DNA from: Pyrinomonadaceae bacterium
GTDB lineage: Bacteria > Acidobacteriota > Blastocatellia > Pyrinomonadales > Pyrinomonadaceae
DNA: 64,000 nucleotides
Assembly (NCBI GenBank): GCA_041749555.1
Contig: JBGTBC010000338.1
Span: forward strand, 5,057 to 69,056
Reading direction: 5' to 3'
Shown piece after piece: positions 22,413-64,000 of the stretch; positions within the stretch are counted from its first letter, which is position 1, and every line of letters starts with the position of its first letter. The position numbers and the translations under genes were made by a program. The notes below the pieces were generated by a model. It was not told the origin of the DNA, ran no database searches, and was given only the letters and a program-made list of their open reading frames with translations.

Positions 22413-22870
22413 ACGCTATCAATATCACCACACGCTTTTTCTGACTAACGATTCCGAGCCATTCCGATGGCTCCCGTTCCCGGGCCGCCGCCGGTCGAAA
22501 AGAATACTTCGATTTGTATTATGCCTTATGGGTTTTCGACTTATCGAATAGCTTTCTCATACGGCGAAGCGTTTCATGTTATAATGTTGCACGCATTGCA
22601 CGATGTATAATACATTGTATGATCCGCTAATTTGGTAGAAGTTATGGGACACTAGGAAATTAAGGTAACTATATACAGATGAATAGGTTACCTGACCACA
22701 GAATGTCCCGCCCTGGGACAAAAACGTGCTGATTTGAATTTTTCTTGCCCCCGAAAGTAAGATCATTGATCTTGGAAAATCTTTTGTGAACCGTCCAACG
22801 GAAGTATTTCGGTTGGGCTTACGCGTTCGAAAGTCGCGGTCTTTTTCCTTATACTGTCGCGGAACTTATA

Positions 22871-29596: not shown

Positions 29597-29759
29597 TATC
29601 ATCTGCGATACATTCGCCAATCTGAGAAAACCATGATAAAATATTTACGGAGGTTTGTGCATTGCCATTCTTAAACGAAGCATGACAACCGATAGCAAAA
29701 CAGAGAGTGACAACCTATTTCAGAACGACATTCGGTGAAACACGTTACGCACAATTCGA

Positions 29760-29832
29760 AAAATGGGACAAACAGGCGTAAATCATTGAACCGGAAAGGT
29801 TTATTCGTCCCATTTTCTGTCCCGCATGGGAC
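29760..29832. other. nested inverted repeats in the ribF-upstream spacer
   Basis: AAAATGGGAC (29760-29769) pairs with GTCCCATTTT (29807-29816) and encloses AACC-ggaaa-GGTT (29789-29801). It is followed by the hairpin GTCCC-gcat-GGGAC (29819-29832). Confidence 0.5.
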
Positions 29833-30035
29833 GAAACCATGATGATTCGTAAGACTAACGCCCGTACAGATCATGCTTGTCTCGCGGAAGATCGGGTTGC
29901 AGAAAAGTCTAAAGTGTTGATTTGATTGAAGTTGGCTAATCTGACCGGGGCTGTTTTTTAGGTTGAAATGCGAGACAGGGCTCTATTGGGAGTTAAACTG
30001 TACGGCTGCAAGTACTTAGCTGTATTACATGCAAG

Positions 30036-57266: not shown

Positions 57267-57343
57267 CTCCGCTTCAGTTTTGGATAGCGTCGCCGCCGCC
57301 TCTGAATGCGCCGCGCCCAGCCATTGTGCTAAAGTTTTTCTAT

Positions 57344-58177
57344 ATGAACGGAAACGAGATCAGATCGAAATTTCTCGAATACTTCGAACGCAATGGACAC
57401 AAGATCTTGTCTTCATCACCACTTCTCCCGGCGAACGATCCAACTCTGCTTTTTATCAATGCCGGGATGAACCAGTTCAAAGACGTCTTTCTCGGCAATG
57501 AAAAACGCGATTATAAACGGGCGGTCACCTCGCAGAAATGTATCCGGGCAGGTGGCAAGCACAATGATCTCGACGAGGTTGGAAAAACGGCCAGGCATCA
57601 CACATTCTTTGAAATGCTGGGAAATTTCTCATTCGGAGATTATTTCAAAAAAGAGGCGATCGAATATGCGTGGGATTTTCTGCTCAATGAGCTCAAGCTC
57701 GAGGAATCTCGTTTGTGGTTCACCGTGTTCGAGGGCGACGCAGAAGTCGGGCCGGACGATGAAGCTCGCAGCCTGTGGGAGAGCGTAGGTGCAAAACCCG
57801 AACGTGTTCTCGGATTTGGAAGAAAGGACAATTTCTGGCAGATGGGGGAAACAGGCCCCTGCGGACCGTGCTCGGAGATCCACTATTACATGGGCGAGGA
57901 CCCGGATGATCCAGCAAAAAACTCGGCCTTGTGGGTCAATGGCGAGGGTGATACAACGATGGAGATCTGGAATCTGGTTTTTATGCAGTACAACCGCACT
58001 GAGGATTCTCCTGGGGTATTTACCCTAACGCCGCTGCCAGCTCCGTCGGTCGACACCGGCTTGGGCCTTGAGCGGATCACGGCAGTCATGCAGGGCGTGT
58101 CAAACAACTATGACACCGACCTGATCCGCCCCATCGTCGATTTTGCGGCCGAATTGGCGGTCAAGCCGCGCATATGA
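57344..58177 (+). CDS. alanyl-tRNA synthetase catalytic core only (277 aa; truncated alaS-like gene)
   Basis: The sequence [19 protein letters not shown]...[16 protein letters not shown]...[34 protein letters not shown]...[11 protein letters not shown]...[10 protein letters not shown]... is collinear with AlaRS residues 1 to about 265. It then stops (…[10 protein letters not shown]). The track ORF start at 57155 overlaps msrB and is rejected. Confidence 0.8.
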
Positions 58178-58860
58178 TCATTACCGACGACCTGTTAAAT
58201 TATGCGGAGAGTTTTACGTCCGGCGAGAGCAAGGTGCTCGCGGAACTGCGCGCTCATTGTTACGAGCATTATACGGATTCGAGTATGCTCTCGGGATTCT
58301 TTCAGGGCCGCGTGCTTAGCATGTTCTCACATATGATCCGGCCTGCCGTCGTCCTTGAGATCGGCACTTATCTCGGTTACTCTGCACTCTGCCTTGCCGA
58401 GGGACTCGCTGACGATGGAAAGGTAATTACAATAGACATACAGGAAGAAACGAATCGAGTAGCACAATCGTACGTAGCGAAAACGGCATACTCATCAAAG
58501 ATCGAATTCCTTCTCGGCACCGCGACCGATCTGATCCCGACCCTTTCAGATACCTTTGACCTTGTTTTTATCGATGCGGACAAGCCAAATTATTCGAACT
58601 ATTATGACCTTGTCTTTAACCGCGTCCGCCAGGGAGGTTACATCATCGCCGATAACGTCCTATGGAGCGGCAAGGTACTAGCAGAGGTTAAGGATGAAGA
58701 CACCCATGCATTGCACGAATTCAATCAGAAGGTTATGGCCGACGACCGCGTGGAGAATGTCTTATTCCCGATCCGTGACGGCTTGATGGTGATACGCAAG
58801 AAATTGAGGTCATCTCGTTCAGACCCCGACAAAGCACCAGTATACGAACTGTCCATCTAA
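58174..58860 (+). CDS. class I SAM-dependent O-methyltransferase (caffeoyl-CoA OMT / YrrM-like)
   Basis: Contains [13 protein letters not shown], ...ITIDI and ...[14 protein letters not shown], with ...GG.I..DNVLW.G.V. Its ATG overlaps the TGA of the alaS-like ORF (ATGA at 58174-58177). Confidence 0.8.
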
Positions 58861-58875
58861 TATCGCCCGCGCCCT

Positions 58876-60192
58876 TCACCCTTTCTTTTGGATCTCCCGA
58901 GCTACTTTTTGAACCTGATCCAAAACTCTCAGTAAGTTCCCGCTCCAGATCTTTTCGATCTGCTTTTTGGTGTAGCCGCGGCGGACGAGCTCAAGCGTTA
59001 CATTAAAAGTTTCCGCCGCATTATCCCATCCTTCGACGCCGCCGCCACCGTCAAAATCTGAGCTAATGCCGACATGGTCGATGCCGATCTTCTTGACGAG
59101 ATAGTCGATATGGTCGACAAAATCCTTCACGTTGACGTCGGGTGCCGCGTCTTTCAGACGTTCGCGGATGATGGGATTGACCTTGGCCCGAAACGCGGCA
59201 TTGCGTGCCATGTAATCGGCCCGCTCTGCTTCGGCAAGTGCAAGAACTTCCGCGCGGGGAAGTATCTTGAAATTCTCTGCGGCCGCTAACTCCTGCAGCA
59301 TCTCGTTGGTCTTCGCTGTGCGGGCAGCACTCTTTGCAATGTTTACATACCCGCGGAAGGCCACCGCCTGAACCACTCCGCCATTCTTTTTGATCAGTAA
59401 AAGTTCCTCGTCATCGAGGTTGCGGCTATGGTCGGCGAGTGAGCGGGCCGACGAGTGTGAGGCGATTACCGGCGCCTTTGTCATGGCAAGAGTTTGAATA
59501 TTTGATCGTTTCGACGGATGCGACAGGTCGATCATAATGCCCCATTTGTTCATCTCAGCGATGGCCTGACGCCCAAGTTCGCTGAGGCCGTTGTGAAGCC
59601 ATTTGCTATCGCGTTCGCCGGTATTGGAATCCGCGAGTTGGCTGTGACCGTTATGTGCCAGCGACATATACCGCGCACCGCGATCGGCAAATTCCTTTAC
59701 ACGTGAAATATCGGTGCCGATCGGATAGGCGTTTTCAACGCCGATCATAGCAACCTTTTTGCCTGATCTAACGATCCGTTTTACATCTTTTGATGTGAGT
59801 GCAAGTTCGATCTCATTCGGGGCCAAAGTCTTCGTCAGGCGATGGATCGCTTCGAATTTGTCGATAGCATTTGCATACGCACGTTTATAGCCCTCTTCGT
59901 TTAATTCGCCCTGGCCGGTGTAAACGATGAGCCACGCCACATCGAGCCCGCCGCGCTTCATCTTCGGCAGATCGACCTGGATCGGCAATTCCTGCGTGTA
60001 GTTTACCTTGTCAGCGAAGTTCGCTGTGTTGATATCGACGTGCGTATCGAGCGTGATCACATCGGCATGGATCTTCCGTGCCGCCGCGACCAACTTAGCC
60101 TCGTCGGCAGGCTGCTGAGCGAGGAGCGGAACCGAAGGGCCGGCGAGAAGAAAAACAAAGATTATTGCAGCAGAAAGTATACGGTTCATCAT
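58876..60192 (-). CDS. exported membrane-dipeptidase family (peptidase M19) protein
   Basis: Has a signal peptide, with DTHVD, ...SLAHNGHSQLADS and ...SHSSARSL, then ...HVGISSDFDGGGG. Confidence 0.8.
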   Translation of the reverse strand: MMNRILSAAIIFVFLLAGPSVPLLAQQPADEAKLVAAARKIHADVITLDTHVDINTANFADKVNYTQELPIQVDLPKMKRGGLDVAWLIVYTGQGELNEEGYKRAYANAIDKFEAIHRLTKTLAPNEIELALTSKDVKRIVRSGKKVAMIGVENAYPIGTDISRVKEFADRGARYMSLAHNGHSQLADSNTGERDSKWLHNGLSELGRQAIAEMNKWGIMIDLSHPSKRSNIQTLAMTKAPVIASHSSARSLADHSRNLDDEELLLIKKNGGVVQAVAFRGYVNIAKSAARTAKTNEMLQELAAAENFKILPRAEVLALAEAERADYMARNAAFRAKVNPIIRERLKDAAPDVNVKDFVDHIDYLVKKIGIDHVGISSDFDGGGGVEGWDNAAETFNVTLELVRRGYTKKQIEKIWSGNLLRVLDQVQKVAREIQKKG

Positions 60193-60315
60193 GTACCAAT
60201 TTTACCCGAACGCTGTCGATATCCGAAAATAGTGGCCCGAAGGCGAATAAAATAGAGAAAGGCCGTTCGAAACCTAGTGCTTCCGGACGGCCTTCTGTTT
60301 CATCATTATGTCAAT

Positions 60316-60678
60316 TTAGCTTTGAGTCTGAGAATGTATCAGACGCCGTGTCTGATCGCCGAAAAGCACGTCGATCTTCTGCGGCTCAATAACAGCTGTT
60401 ACTTCGCCGCGGCCGAACTTGTCATGCGTCATCGCCTGGCCCTTTCGGTATTTCCTCTGCCGGTCATAAGGCGATGCATTCTTTCCAGTACCCATCGACA
60501 CCGAGGTTTTTACGCCTCGGGTAAACGTGCTGACCGTCTCGCATGCCTCGCACACAGCCTTTGTGATCTTGCCCTGTTTTGTGACGGTAACAACCTTGTG
60601 GTTTTGCTCAAGGTCGCATGCCGAGCACATCATCTCGACCGACTGATCAACTGCATAAGCTATAACTTTTACTGCCAT
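60316..60678 (-). CDS. zinc-ribbon-like hypothetical protein
   Basis: 120 aa with CSAC...CEAC Cys pairs. It lies downstream of, and on the same strand as, the helicase gene. Confidence 0.5.
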   Translation of the reverse strand: MAVKVIAYAVDQSVEMMCSACDLEQNHKVVTVTKQGKITKAVCEACETVSTFTRGVKTSVSMGTGKNASPYDRQRKYRKGQAMTHDKFGRGEVTAVIEPQKIDVLFGDQTRRLIHSQTQS

Positions 60679-60708
60679 AATTTTCCTCTTGTCCTGTTCC
60701 TCCGGCAG

Positions 60709-61917
60709 TTACCTGCCGCGTCTTGGCCCAAATGAACGAAAGCTTTTTCGTGCCGGCGTGGAAAATTTCTTTGCCGGCGCTGCCTGCGTAAACGTGTGGC
60801 CGCCGAAATCAGGCAGAACGATGCGTTCCACCCGTTCACCCGTCAGCCGCTCGATCGCCCGCATTGAATGCTCTTCTGCGATAGTAAACAGCGTAATGGC
60901 ACGCCCCTTGTTTCCTGCACGGCCGGTTCGGCCAATTCGGTGTACGTAATCCTCGGGTGCCTCGGGTATATCATAGTTTATCACATGTGACACCGAGTCG
61001 ATATCGATCCCGCGGGCGGCAACATCGGTAGCGATAAGCACGGTCGTGTGGCCGGACTTGAATGCTGCCAATGCAGACTCACGCTGTGACTGCGAACGGT
61101 CACCATGGATCCGGTTAGATTTATGCGAACGCTTTTCCAAAATATGTGCCAAACGGTCAGCACCTCGCTTGGTGCGTGTAAACACAAGTACGCGGTCGAA
61201 ATCTTCCTTATCCAACAGGTCCAGCAGCAGCGGCATTTTTGATTGCTGTGCAACCGGATACGCTGTTTGATGGATCAGGCCCGCGGCCTTTCCTCTCGGG
61301 CTGACCTCGATAAAGGTCGGATCCTTGAGCATCGCGTAAGCAATACGCTCGATCTCGGGCGACATTGTCGCTGAGAAAAAGAGTGTCTGGCGCTTTGCCG
61401 GAATAACCTTGACTATCCGCTTGATCGAGGGCAAAAAGCCCATATCGAGCATGCGGTCCGCCTCGTCGAGGACGAGATGGGTAAGGCTATTGAAATTGAT
61501 CAGGCCCTGGTCCATAAAGTCTATAAGACGGCCAGGCGTAGCAATTATCAAATTTGCTCCACGCCGCAGACTGTCCATCTGTCGTTTGTAACCGGCCCCA
61601 CCGATAATGGCGGTGCAGGTAATGCCCTTCGGGGCAAATTCGCGGCAAGCTGCCTCGGTCTGATTGGCAAGCTCGCGTGTCGGCGAAAGGACGAGAACTC
61701 TTGTTCCCGGTTTACCCTTGTTATCACCTAGAAGTTGTAAAATCGGCAGCAAAAAGGCCGCCGTCTTGCCGGTACCGGTCTCGGCACTGGCTAAAATGTC
61801 TCCGCCCTTTAAAAGGACCGGAATCGCCTGTTTTTGAATGGGTGTAGGCTCGGTAAAACCCAGTTGCTCGCACTTTTCCGTGAAAAACGGAAGCAAGCCT
61901 AAATCGCTAAAAGTCAT
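60709..61917 (-). CDS. DEAD-box ATP-dependent RNA helicase (RhlE-like)
   Basis: Contains the Q-motif F..LGL...F.EPTPIQ, plus AETGTGKT, DEADRMLDMGF, SAT and HRIGRTGRAG, with a basic C-terminal tail. Confidence 0.9.
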   Translation of the reverse strand: MTFSDLGLLPFFTEKCEQLGFTEPTPIQKQAIPVLLKGGDILASAETGTGKTAAFLLPILQLLGDNKGKPGTRVLVLSPTRELANQTEAACREFAPKGITCTAIIGGAGYKRQMDSLRRGANLIIATPGRLIDFMDQGLINFNSLTHLVLDEADRMLDMGFLPSIKRIVKVIPAKRQTLFFSATMSPEIERIAYAMLKDPTFIEVSPRGKAAGLIHQTAYPVAQQSKMPLLLDLLDKEDFDRVLVFTRTKRGADRLAHILEKRSHKSNRIHGDRSQSQRESALAAFKSGHTTVLIATDVAARGIDIDSVSHVINYDIPEAPEDYVHRIGRTGRAGNKGRAITLFTIAEEHSMRAIERLTGERVERIVLPDFGGHTFTQAAPAKKFSTPARKSFRSFGPRRGR

Positions 61918-61951
61918 TTGTAATTGAAAAACTATATCTACTGAAGTCCCA

Positions 61952-62041
61952 GTTCAGAGTCCCTGCTTCAGCAGGCCGCGGATCGCAGTATGCGATCAGA
62001 CCTACCACATGGGATCGCCGCCTAAAGGCGGTACTCCAAAC
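61952..62041. repeat. 90-bp palindromic REP/BIME- or MITE-like element, copy 2 (35 bp upstream of the helicase start codon)
   Basis: The left arm is GTTCAGAGTCCCTGCTTCAGCAGGC. The reverse complement of the right arm is GTTTGGAGTACCGCCTTTAGGCGGC. The architecture matches 25902-25989. The interior contains the hairpin GATCGCA-gta-TGCGATC. Confidence 0.65.
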
Positions 62042-62420
62042 GAGTCTTCGGGATGTAATAAGAAGTTACTAACGCGGAGATTTCTTCAGTGTAACGGTAG
62101 CAAGGAAGGGTCTACGTTCGAGGGCTCACAACTAAGGAGCCGCTTCTAACAGTTATAAAGGAACCGTTTCTCGAACTATCTATTTCGATCCAACATAGGA
62201 CCGAGTTTACCGTCGACGAATGAGACACGGAATTGTCAAACTACTAAGACTACAGTAATTAGCAAAAGGATGCAAGTTATTTTCGGCCGCCCGGCTGTTT
62301 ACCGGGTATTACTCCGAAAAGACGAAGCAGAGCGGCGGTCAGCGTCCAACGTATACCATTCTACATTCTACAGACTGCGTTCGATCCCCGTCCGTCACCC
62401 TTCGAATTCGTCCCCAAACT

Positions 62421-62673
62421 CCTGTAACTGTCCCACGCCGGGACAGTAATATCGCTGTAACTGCCTTATAATGTGATAGTTACAGGTTTTCGTACTGTCC
62501 CACGCTTCGGCGTGCGGGTGTAATACAGCGGTGGTCAGTGGTCGGAGCCGCTTTTGGATGATGGAGTGATTCTTCCTTCGGGATCGTCACTCCTCGTTCG
62601 TATCCCCACTCGCCACTCCGAACTCGCCACTCCGCACTCACTAGACCCCCTGCTTTTGTACCACGGCTGGTAC
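62421..62673 (+). ncRNA. candidate structured RNA of unknown class (hairpin cluster with two cUUCGg tetraloops)
   Basis: The five hairpins H1-H5 and the two direct repeats that allow alternative pairing are described in the finding at 62421-62673. Strand is inferred only from the two UUCG loops. No promoter or terminator is defined. Confidence 0.35.
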
Positions 62674-62944
62674 AGCAATTATGGCGTAACCCCTGCTATC
62701 ACAGCAAGTTACATGCTTGTACCATGTACCACGCATTTTTCAGTTTTCTGTATTACGATGTATGACAGCAATCCAAAAGCTAAGGTTTCTACCATCCACA
62801 GCAACGAAAACTCATCAACCATCAACGAACAAACCCCTGCGATCCACGATCAACGATCAATGAGCAAATTTTCAAACATCCGCACGGCCTCGAAAGACCG
62901 GGCACCGCAACAGGCTAACGTACTTTTTAGGCTTTCGGGTAGTC

Positions 62945-63001
62945 CATTTGGCGTACTTTGTAGCATTTGGCGTGATTTGCATCATTTGGCGTGGATAGGA
63001 T
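62945..63001 (+). repeat. three iteron-like direct repeats, CATTTGGCGT(A/G), at exact 19-bp spacing
   Basis: The repeats start at 62945, 62964 and 62983. The flanking 8-9 nt of each unit are variable. Confidence 0.6.
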
Positions 63002-63256
63002 CTCGGGGTGCCCTTACTGCGCGCGGGCTTCTAAATGCAGCATTTAACTTGAAATTGCACATTTAGTGGAAAAAGACGCAAAAGGGAGACTTCGTTTTTT
63101 CCGCGGTCGGTCCTGAGGGGACATCGGTCCATACCCACGAGGACACAAATCATCACGAAGTTTCCCACATCCAGGATTTTACGGAAGAAAGCGGCCATTT
63201 CATCTTCTATAACAAACAAATATAAATTTTGCTGATTGCAGAAACGTGGATCTCGA

Positions 63257-63285
63257 TTGACGCACGTATGAAGTAGGAGTAGAAT
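63257..63285 (+). promoter_or_regulatory. candidate sigma-70 promoter of the downstream adhesin-like gene
   Basis: TTGACG (63257-63262), a 17-nt spacer, then TAGAAT (63280-63285), 75 nt upstream of the ATG at 63361. A CCAGGAG Shine-Dalgarno sequence lies at 63347-63353. Confidence 0.5.
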
Positions 63286-63360
63286 CTGAACGATTTTCAT
63301 CGTAATTTCTTAACCTTAAAATAGATCATTTATCCTTCCCGGTGTTCCAGGAGTCAAAGT

Positions 63361-64000
63361 ATGTTCCCTAGATCCTCTCGCTCTTTGTTCGCAGCGATCT
63401 TTGCCATTGTGTTTGCAGCTTCCGTGCTAATGATGAGCACGTTCGGCCCCTTTGCCGGTGCCGAGGGCGGGACGGAAGTGTCCTCGGGGATATTCGCGCC
63501 CACCATCACGGCGACGAAGACCGATTCGCTCGTGGCGACGGGCAACAATGGTGACGGAAGGGCCGATCCCGGAGACGAGATCGATTATACAGTCACGGTA
63601 CAAAACGGAGCCGCGCCGGGGGCGGGAAATGATGCGACCAACCTCGCTCTCTCGGACACGATAGACGCGAATACGACTTTAGACGGCGGATCTCTGGCGT
63701 CTTCCCCAGTGGGGGTGAATGATACGTTTCCCGTGACGGTGCTAGGCAACGTTTCGATCAACTCCGCGACGATCACAGGCGGTCCTTTCCGCGTTACTGC
63801 AAACGACTATCTCGGTCTGAATCCCGTAGCGACGATCGACTCATTTGACGCAACATCGGCGAATGGCGGCAACGTCACGATGGTGCAATCCGGTGCCAAC
63901 ATGGGTGAGTTCACCTATAACCCACCTCCGGGATTTGAGGGAACCGATACCTTCACCTACACGCTGACCGACAACGGGAACGCATCAAGTGCGGCTTCAA
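63361..64000 (+). CDS. large exported repeat protein (DUF11-like and cadherin/VCBS-like Ig repeats), N-terminal part only
   Basis: Absent from the ORF track because there is no stop in the window. My translation reads MFPRSSRSLFAAIFAIVFAASVLMMSTF (signal peptide) ...GDGRADPGDEIDYTVTVQNGAAPGAGNDATNLALSDTID... VTANDYLG...FTYNPPPGFEGTDTFTYTLTDNG. Confidence 0.75.
   Translation, partial: MFPRSSRSLFAAIFAIVFAASVLMMSTFGPFAGAEGGTEVSSGIFAPTITATKTDSLVATGNNGDGRADPGDEIDYTVTVQNGAAPGAGNDATNLALSDTIDANTTLDGGSLASSPVGVNDTFPVTVLGNVSINSATITGGPFRVTANDYLGLNPVATIDSFDATSANGGNVTMVQSGANMGEFTYNPPPGFEGTDTFTYTLTDNGNASSAAS

Follow-up and report, generated by a model that had tools for sequence, protein, structure and literature searches.

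What is the hairpin cluster found upstream of a DEAD-box RNA helicase gene in an uncultured soil Pyrinomonadaceae bacterium (Acidobacteriota)? The DNA analyzed here, referred to as the window, covers 64 kb of its genome, and the cluster falls within a 1443-nt spacer (61918-63360) that separates the helicase gene from a gene for an adhesin-like protein. An earlier note, made from the sequence alone, had flagged the segment as a candidate novel structured RNA. Our reading, held with slightly better than even confidence, is that the flagged cluster consists of two tandem, diverged copies of a lineage-specific dispersed intergenic hairpin repeat of ~90 nt that is REP/BOX/MITE-like. The conserved RNA structure in this spacer is a different object, the leader of the helicase gene, and not the flagged segment.

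We read the sequence from 61500 to 64000 and searched it for hairpins and direct repeats by exact string matching. All five hairpins (H1 to H5) and both direct repeats that had been described are present, each shifted one nucleotide to the right of its earlier placement (Table 1). The helicase was then used as the anchor for a scan of GTDB species genomes, which returned 80 loci, all from Pyrinomonadaceae/Blastocatellia (Acidobacteriota), with helicase identities of 71-98%. Protein-based look-ups added 21 loci, 17 of them helicase loci, for a total of ~100 related loci from genomes and metagenomes. For the helicase and the M19 peptidase, exact-protein look-ups gave no database record.

When the whole spacer was compared with these loci by blastn, the block at 62045-62283 had ~70-93% identity in essentially all of them, and in close relatives the conserved block is 61918-62288. 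Similarity to the window ends at 62288 in every relative with upstream DNA except L002, a locus of the metagenome-assembled genome (MAG) JTS-RE267. Locus L092 shares 90.9% identity with the window over 57324-62288 and is unrelated past that point, and the flagged segment was not found at this locus in L001, L003, L081, L092, L093/94, or L099-L101. Among the ~100 loci, L002 has the only homologue of 62291-62543 (67-75% identity); it also matches 62868-62969 at 73% identity. Noncoding DNA upstream of the helicase spans a median of 394 nt in 72 loci (interquartile range 357-499); the corresponding lengths are 1443 nt for the window and 1343 nt for L002. Conservation at the same locus, of the sort that would mark a structured RNA gene or cis-element, is therefore lacking, with L002 alone homologous beyond 62288. 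Because the conserved helicase promoter is located between the segment and the gene, the helicase mRNA does not include the segment.

In the pairwise alignment with L002, the H1 and H2 stems are kept and the loops have diverged (the H1 loop changes from acgcc to aggcg, and hardly any of the 15-nt H2 loop is shared). H3 reads CCCACGC-uuuuu-GUGUGGG in L002 and includes a G-U pair that is possible on the + strand only. Nothing in L002 aligns with H4 or H5. The two UUCG loops had been taken as a hallmark of selected RNA structure, an argument that does not survive the comparison: the H3 loop is TTTTT in L002, the second and third copies of the repeat described below are without H3, and H4 has no homologue in L002, elsewhere in the window, or in any fetched locus.

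The flagged cluster is internally duplicated. The intervals 62405-62535 (copy A) and 62634-62765 (copy B) align with 3325-3460 of L002 as one unit of ~125 nt, and a profile of these three found a further copy near 22.7 kb, in an unrelated divergent spacer flanked by the genes for a DUF3465 protein and deoxyhypusine synthase. Aligned together, the four copies define family 1, whose unit of ~90 nt has the form TTTTGTCCCA-loop-GGGACA, ~12 nt, GTAAC-(15-17 nt)-GTTAC, ~12 nt, TGTCCCA. The first hairpin is TGTCCC-N5/6-GGGACA, and the closing TGTCCCA is an extra direct copy of its 5′ arm. Across the copies the stem cores are invariant, and the sequence and length of the loops vary. Inverted half-sites are separated by loops of 3-6 nt, a range that speaks for hairpins and against operators of fixed spacing. 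Copies A and B are arranged head-to-tail and have diverged from each other.

A covariance model (CM R1) was built from the four family 1 copies, three in the window and one in L002. In 671 kb of related DNA its sole match was the L002 copy (88.8 bits), and the unit was recovered at E 1e-17 to 1e-21 at the three window sites and once in L002. The model also gave a weak match (19 bits, E = 0.013) to a related element at 29761-29845 on the - strand. This belongs to family 2, a 95-nt repeat that shares the GTCCCA/TGGGAC core with family 1; its counterpart in L002 lies in the spacer upstream of the helicase and is thus non-syntenic with the intergenic site at 29.8 kb. Families 1 and 2 are scattered through intergenic DNA of the source genome and of one related species, with 3-4 copies in the 64-kb window, two in L002 (one per sub-family), and none in the rest of the 671 kb.

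GTCCC/GGGAC is under-represented in the window (73 observed, 125 expected), and clusters of it (at least three within 120 nt) occur at the intergenic sites at 22.6, 29.8, and 62.4 kb and at one intragenic site at 23.6 kb. As in extragenic palindromic units, a conserved stem encloses a variable loop in the four family 1 copies and as GTCCC-N4-GGGAC at 29.8 kb, always between open reading frames (ORFs). A dispersed repeat accounts for the distribution of the copies better than one novel structured RNA gene does. The flagged cluster therefore resolves into copy A (H1, H2, and H3), the unique H4, a tract of short C-rich tandem repeats, and the first part of copy B (H5). Within the C-rich tract, the 14-mer TCCSMACTCGCCAC occurs twice (62603-62630). 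CATTCTA repeats precede copy A (twice, at 62357-62370) and the L002 copy (~7 times, at about 3466-3500 of L002).

Table 1. Features of the helicase-upstream spacer and repeat copies elsewhere in the window, in window coordinates
Feature	Position	Strand	Remarks
H1, CTGTCCC / GGGACAG	62428-62434 / 62440-62446	+	exact match
H2, CTGTAACT / AGTTACAG, 15-nt loop	62455-62462 / 62478-62485	+	exact match
H3, CCCACGC-UUCG-GCGUG(C)GGG	62499-62518; core CACGC-TTCG-GCGTG 62501-62514	+	copy A only
H4, GGAGTGA / TCACTCC around CCTTCGGG (CC-UUCG-GG)	62563-62569 / 62587-62593; CCTTCGGG at 62575-62582	+	between repeat copies A and B
H5, TGTACCA-cggc-TGGTACA	62657-62663 / 62668-62674	+	exact match
Direct repeat CTGTAACTG	62422 and 62455	+	exact match
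Direct repeat ACTGTCCCACGC	62427 and 62494	+	exact match
Family 1 copy A: H1, H2, third half-site ACTGTCCCACGC	62417-62505	+	nhmmer E = 2.5e-33; CM R1 93 bits; alignments A2, A3, A5; minimum free energy fold
Family 1 copy B: H5, GTAAC-17 nt-GTTAC hairpin, TGTACCA twice (62718, 62725)	62646-62734	+	nhmmer E = 1e-29; CM R1 82 bits
Family 1 third copy: TGTCCC-agggc-GGGACA, GGTAAC-17 nt-GTTACC, TGTCCCA	22641-22732	-	CM R1 78.8 bits, E = 1.3e-17
Family 2 repeat, 95 nt: GTCCCA-tgc-GGGAC, GAAAATGGGAC...GTCCCATTTTTC (12-bp inverted repeat), GTGCGTAACGTG	29737-29831	-	85% identical to L002 3126-3220
C-rich, G-poor short tandem repeats TCCCCACTCGCCAC / TCCGAACTCGCCAC	62594-62645	+	precede copy B
DEAD-box RNA helicase gene	60709-61917	-	one flank of spacer
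Promoter and ~320-nt structured 5′ leader of DEAD-box helicase	62275-61918; structured core about 62223-62064	-	leader runs to ATG at 61917
Lineage-specific spacer, ~1 kb between two divergent promoters	62289-63256		similarity to relatives (L002 excepted) ends at 62288
Gene for secreted Ig-like/cadherin-like (adhesin-like) protein	63361 onward	+	other flank of spacer

The repeats are probably mobile and probably have no dedicated RNA function, as judged from their sequences and distribution. They would be non-autonomous, hairpin-based elements that spread or are homogenized as DNA. The hairpin would be the form that is recognized, either as single-stranded DNA or as read-through RNA, and we propose that this could account for stem sequences that are conserved while loops and flanks drift. 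The apparent competing pairings would be a by-product of the repeated 5′ arm.

A dispersed repeat appears to be the most economical reading, and on balance a probable one. It covers the conserved stems with free loops, the several copies in 64 kb as opposed to none in 660 kb of relatives other than L002, the non-syntenic copy with 85% identity, the absence of the segment in a 91%-identical relative, and the lack of transcription signals, since a signal scan found no promoter-like or terminator-like site bracketing the units or the segment. Some observations weigh against it. A high copy number across the genome is an extrapolation from 64 kb with 3-4 copies; REP repeats as a rule have >100 copies per genome. 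No transposase or target-site duplication was found, and no clean empty site was obtained for comparison: homologues of the deoxyhypusine synthase with 93-94% identity lie in different gene neighborhoods, and DUF3465 has no relative above ~78% identity besides the source contig, so that, among the relatives fetched, the site at 22.7 kb has no syntenic close counterpart in which an orthologous empty site could be compared. The copies are old, with ~60-70% identity outside the stems. The 85% identity that family 2 keeps across two species would also fit purifying selection on a function, and G-U pairs in the outer H2 pair and in the L002 H3 pair form only on the unit-sense strand. Finally, the tandem copies lie head-to-tail in a divergent promoter region, unlike classical REPs (PMC3733652).

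The units may instead be a small family of paralogous regulatory RNAs, either cis leaders or small RNAs on the unit-sense strand, that switch between two folds. Fold 1 would be H1 plus H2, and fold 2 would join GGGACAGUA to the downstream UACUGUCCC in a long helix around H2. We consider this possible if doubtful, and the pairing evidence is what favors it. In the four-copy alignment (A5), the two hairpins have 98% standard pairs, compared with 28-52% for slid controls. Three of 13 pairs change on both sides (C:G to A:U in H1 of copy B, and CG/GU/UG/AU and UA/GC in the outer pairs of H2), and the other 10 never vary. The covariation score was reached by 2 of 500 shuffles, a control that overstates significance because the four copies are related by descent. 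Compensatory change is thus present in both H1 and H2, but in four copies only, and the invariant stem cores say nothing about structure either way.

The competing pairings are also a regular feature of the unit. In copy A, GGGACAGTA (62440-62448) can alternatively pair with TACTGTCCC (62493-62501), enclosing H2, and RNAfold favors this alternative helix in copy A (as the minimum free energy, MFE, structure) and in the 22.7-kb copy (in the centroid). By our reading of the alignment by eye, the helix runs 3 nt past the hexamer with covarying bases: GUA/UAC in copy A, GCA/UGC with a bulge in copy B, and CUG/CAC with one mismatch in L002. In copy B all half-sites are altered together, TGTCCC to TGTACC and GGGACA to GGTACA. 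The C-to-A change of the H1 5′ arm recurs in the copy B half-sites at 62718 and 62725, which preserves the alternative partner for the 3′ arm; both copies of the 5′ arm and the 3′ arm have in this sense changed in concert. A more specific proposal is that the GTCCCA-based units are lineage-specific, multi-copy, bistable riboregulators that alternate between H1 plus H2 and the long GGGACAGUA/UACUGUCCC helix. We rate it as rather unlikely; if true, selection on both folds would have left its mark in the three-arm change of copy B. G-U pairs that are valid on the unit-sense strand only, and family 2 copies that are 85% identical between species at different loci, also agree with regulatory RNAs.

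Several features of the units and their sites do not fit regulatory RNAs. The units carry no promoter-like or terminator-like signal, and they are missing from the orthologous site in close relatives. The gene downstream in the sense of the unit differs at each site (adhesin, DUF3465, TPR protein) and is 230-900 nt away. Folded as single units, the copies have z-scores of -3.2 (copy A), -0.2 (copy B), -2.4 (L002), and -1.1 (22.7 kb), with similar values on the opposite strand, so copy B and the 22.7-kb copy fold no better than shuffles. The UUCG loops are not conserved. The earlier note had described a switch or attenuator layout. Every copy does have two mutually exclusive folds, in which one 3′ arm (GGGACAG) has two alternative 5′ partners as in attenuators and riboswitch expression platforms, and the second partner recurs in the repeat unit along with H1 and H2. 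Unlike those regulators, the units have no U-tract terminator, sequestered ribosome-binding site, fixed downstream gene, or aptamer-like conserved core. The proposed single structured RNA is thus supported only in part, by H1, H2, and the alternative partner as recurring parts of a repeat unit.

Alternatively, the GTCCCA/TGGGAC hexamers may be bound as double-stranded DNA by a regulator or a nucleoid protein, much like operators, upstream activating sites, or iterons, and the hairpins would then be incidental. The half-sites keep their sequence whether direct or inverted, they are clustered in at least two divergent spacers (22.6 and 62.4 kb), and other short iterated motifs lie nearby, among them three CATTTGGCGT decamers at 62945-62992. 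We nevertheless find this reading improbable: inverted half-sites are spaced 3-6 nt apart and GTAAC/GTTAC 15-17 nt apart, the outer H2 pairs covary, and in copy B the hexamer is altered in all half-sites in a way that preserves base pairing, which is unexpected for the site of a single protein.

It is very improbable that the cluster is a chance accumulation of short inverted repeats in noncoding DNA. The 266-nt segment 62415-62680 has an MFE of -99.5 kcal/mol on the + strand, compared with -76.2 +/- 4.6 in dinucleotide shuffles (z = -5.0), and the ~90-nt unit is recovered by the covariance model at several sites; the matches within the repeat family contradict chance. The - strand gives z = -4.5, and because the two values are nearly equal the fold signal is real but not strand-specific. 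The segment has 6 perfect 6-bp stem seeds; mononucleotide shuffles average 0.76 +/- 1.0, and 1 of 500 has as many. In favor of chance, 6-8 seeds are also reached by several other 266-nt stretches of the 64 kb, so the seed density of the flagged segment is not unique. The + strand of the window has 24 occurrences of CTTCGG, which makes two within 266 nt unusual but not extreme.

The segment had been called ORF-free, which is not strictly the case. A 170-aa ORF with a TTG start (62554-63066, +) overlaps it, and a 59-aa ORF lies at 62270-62449 (+). A coding-potential check gave no Pfam match for the 170-aa ORF. The GC skew is about -0.2 over 62350-62950.

A dispersed repeat of this kind may be compared with known families. 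Rfam 15 gave no matches over the whole window at gathering thresholds, and in E-value mode over 61800-63500 it returned only mir-4866, a viral pseudoknot, and c-di-GMP-I-UAU (E = 3-6.4), far below gathering. The search thus gave no usable match; the note, for its part, had been unable to fit the segment to tRNA, tmRNA, RNase P, SRP, 6S, or a riboswitch consensus. The outcome for related sequences was divided: one relative, L002, is homologous, and the other relatives are without the segment. Scans of a metagenome collection with a pattern for the flagged region and a clade-specific leader pattern found nothing, and the clade is apparently absent from that collection. The unit pattern had no match among IMG/VR viral contigs, and a blastn comparison of 62289-63360 with 72,556 plasmids and 50,697 phages gave no hits. 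The alternative named earlier, a fragment of a known insertion sequence or prophage, thus finds no support in these collections. We found no transposase, and no integrase among the neighboring genes scanned, as the note had reported.

In pneumococcal BOX, ERIC, Neisseria Correia, and Rickettsia RPE elements, modular dispersed repeats of ~90-130 nt form stable stem-loops and sometimes affect the expression of neighboring genes. The units resemble these, by description only, in their modular stem-loop build, intergenic scatter, species specificity, and variability between close relatives. They differ in having no terminal inverted repeats around the unit (only family 2 has a 12-bp internal one) and no target-site duplication that we could see. 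For MITEs, too, we found no terminal inverted repeats or duplications at the ends of homology between copies.

REP superfamilies are tagged GTAG or CGTC, sometimes TGTC, and have 4-5-nt loops, with no dedicated transposase for the CGTC repeats; classical REPs are mostly head-to-head or tail-to-tail and downstream of genes (PMC3733652). Like the CGTC (TGTC) repeats of the REP/BIME type, the units are short extragenic hairpins with conserved stems and variable loops, lineage-specific and clustered, with no transposase seen nearby (PMC3733652), and the 5′ end is TGTCCC in family 1 and CGTCCC in the 29.8-kb copy. Unlike REPs, they carry the tag inside the stem rather than outside it, and their stems are 5-8 bp rather than 8-9 bp (PMC3733652). 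Each unit is also a ~90-nt composite of two different hairpins and a repeated arm; copies lie head-to-tail, and the 62.4-kb and 22.7-kb sites are divergent promoter regions and not gene 3′ ends. Because of the tag in the stem, the shorter stems, the head-to-tail order, and the promoter sites, we do not file the unit in a REP superfamily and treat the likeness as a lead only. A literature search, not exhaustive, found no catalogue of Acidobacteria repeats.

Four other candidates were rejected. Integron attC sites have the arrangement R′′-L′′...L′-R′ with RYYYAAC/GTTRRRY cores and lie next to an integrase; CTGTAAC and GTTACAG do not fit these cores, and the genes scanned nearby include no integrase. 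A sigma-54 promoter or NtrC-type enhancer (TGTACCA-N4-TGGTACA and TTGGCGT repeats) does not suit GG-to-GC spacings of 8 and 11 nt in place of 10, nor the variable spacing of the inverted repeats. LexA-like CTGT...ACAG pairs are spaced 11 and 23 nt apart. For an invertible promoter between GTAATACAG and CTGTATTAC, the objection is that the flanking motif is nearly palindromic on its own and aligns within the repeat unit as a direct feature.

The helicase leader differs from the flagged segment in its conservation: the block is present in every fetched Pyrinomonadaceae locus with upstream DNA. A promoter-like pair lies on the - strand, with TTGCAT at 62275-62270, a 17-nt spacer, and TAGTCT at 62252-62247. 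Transcription is predicted to start near 62240. From 80 sequences, RNAalifold predicts a multi-helix structure over the core with 42 pairs and 90.8% of cells paired, compared with 32-49% for slid controls. Cells changed on both sides number 189, compared with 68 +/- 12 in shuffles (0 of 500 as high). Covarying pairs include 189:213 (CG 34, UA 32), 106:132 (CG 30, UA 28), 192:209 (CG 37, AU 14, GC 6), and 154:180 (AU 37, GC 16, GU 15). G-U pairs are frequent (89:248, GU 75; 158:174, GU 70; 225:239, UG 43) and would be C-A on the opposite strand, which identifies the RNA strand as helicase-sense. In the less conserved 3′ part of the leader, too, hairpins show compensating changes, one example being CCGCC-TAAA-GGCGG, CCAAC-TAAG-GTTGG, and CAAGC-TAAA-GCTTG.

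The leader has no Rfam match, and full-text literature searches, which were not exhaustive, gave no described helicase leader motif in Acidobacteria. It is a good candidate for a new cis-regulatory leader of a DEAD-box helicase. In E. coli, the cold-shock DEAD-box helicase gene deaD/csdA has a long structured 5′ leader. The two are alike by description only, each a leader of several hundred nt upstream of a DEAD-box helicase gene; the one described here is ~320 nt long and covarying. An exact 9-mer, CTTCGGGAT, is common to the leader (62046-62054; AUCCCGAAG in the RNA) and the H4 loop region (62576-62584), possibly by coincidence. Directly downstream of the helicase, in nearly all loci with gene tables, is a gene for a conserved protein of 117-120 aa without a Pfam match (60316-60678, -).

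Toward the other flank, the adhesin gene has a sigma-70-like match at 63257-63285. About 270 nt upstream of this predicted promoter are the three exact CATTTGGCGT decamers, with 19-nt spacing, which may be iterated protein-binding sites and are partly conserved in L002 (block 62868-62969).

The alanyl-tRNA synthetase (AlaRS) gene of this region is split. A 277-aa N-terminal ORF at 57344-58177 (+) overlaps the start of a methyltransferase gene and has counterparts at 6383-7216 of L092 and 8907-9206 of L001. The 634-aa C-terminal ORF has its own start codon and is found at 175-2079 of L092 and 1-270 of L001; it is not within the 64 kb of the window. Each half has its own start and stop, and the two are on opposite sides of a block encoding the methyltransferase, an M19 dipeptidase, the 120-aa protein, and the helicase. 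They are separated by 4-6 unrelated genes, including variable cargo, in an arrangement common to three related genomes. Between the helicase leader and the C-terminal ORF the DNA varies: L092 has only ~200 nt of noncoding DNA, L001 has a gene for a 983-aa outer-membrane protein, and the counterpart in the window is the repeat-rich spacer with the adhesin-like gene. We found no bacterial split AlaRS in the literature, in a search that was not exhaustive.

The helicase leader matters more than the object that was flagged: it is a candidate element through which an RNA helicase could be autoregulated or respond to temperature. For RNA-discovery pipelines the flagged cluster serves as a warning that UUCG loops and a strong fold z-score in one genome do not mark a conserved RNA. 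The repeats add an undescribed small dispersed family to an uncultured soil Acidobacteriota lineage in which small repeats have hardly been catalogued, and they may be used as a marker of rapid intergenic turnover.

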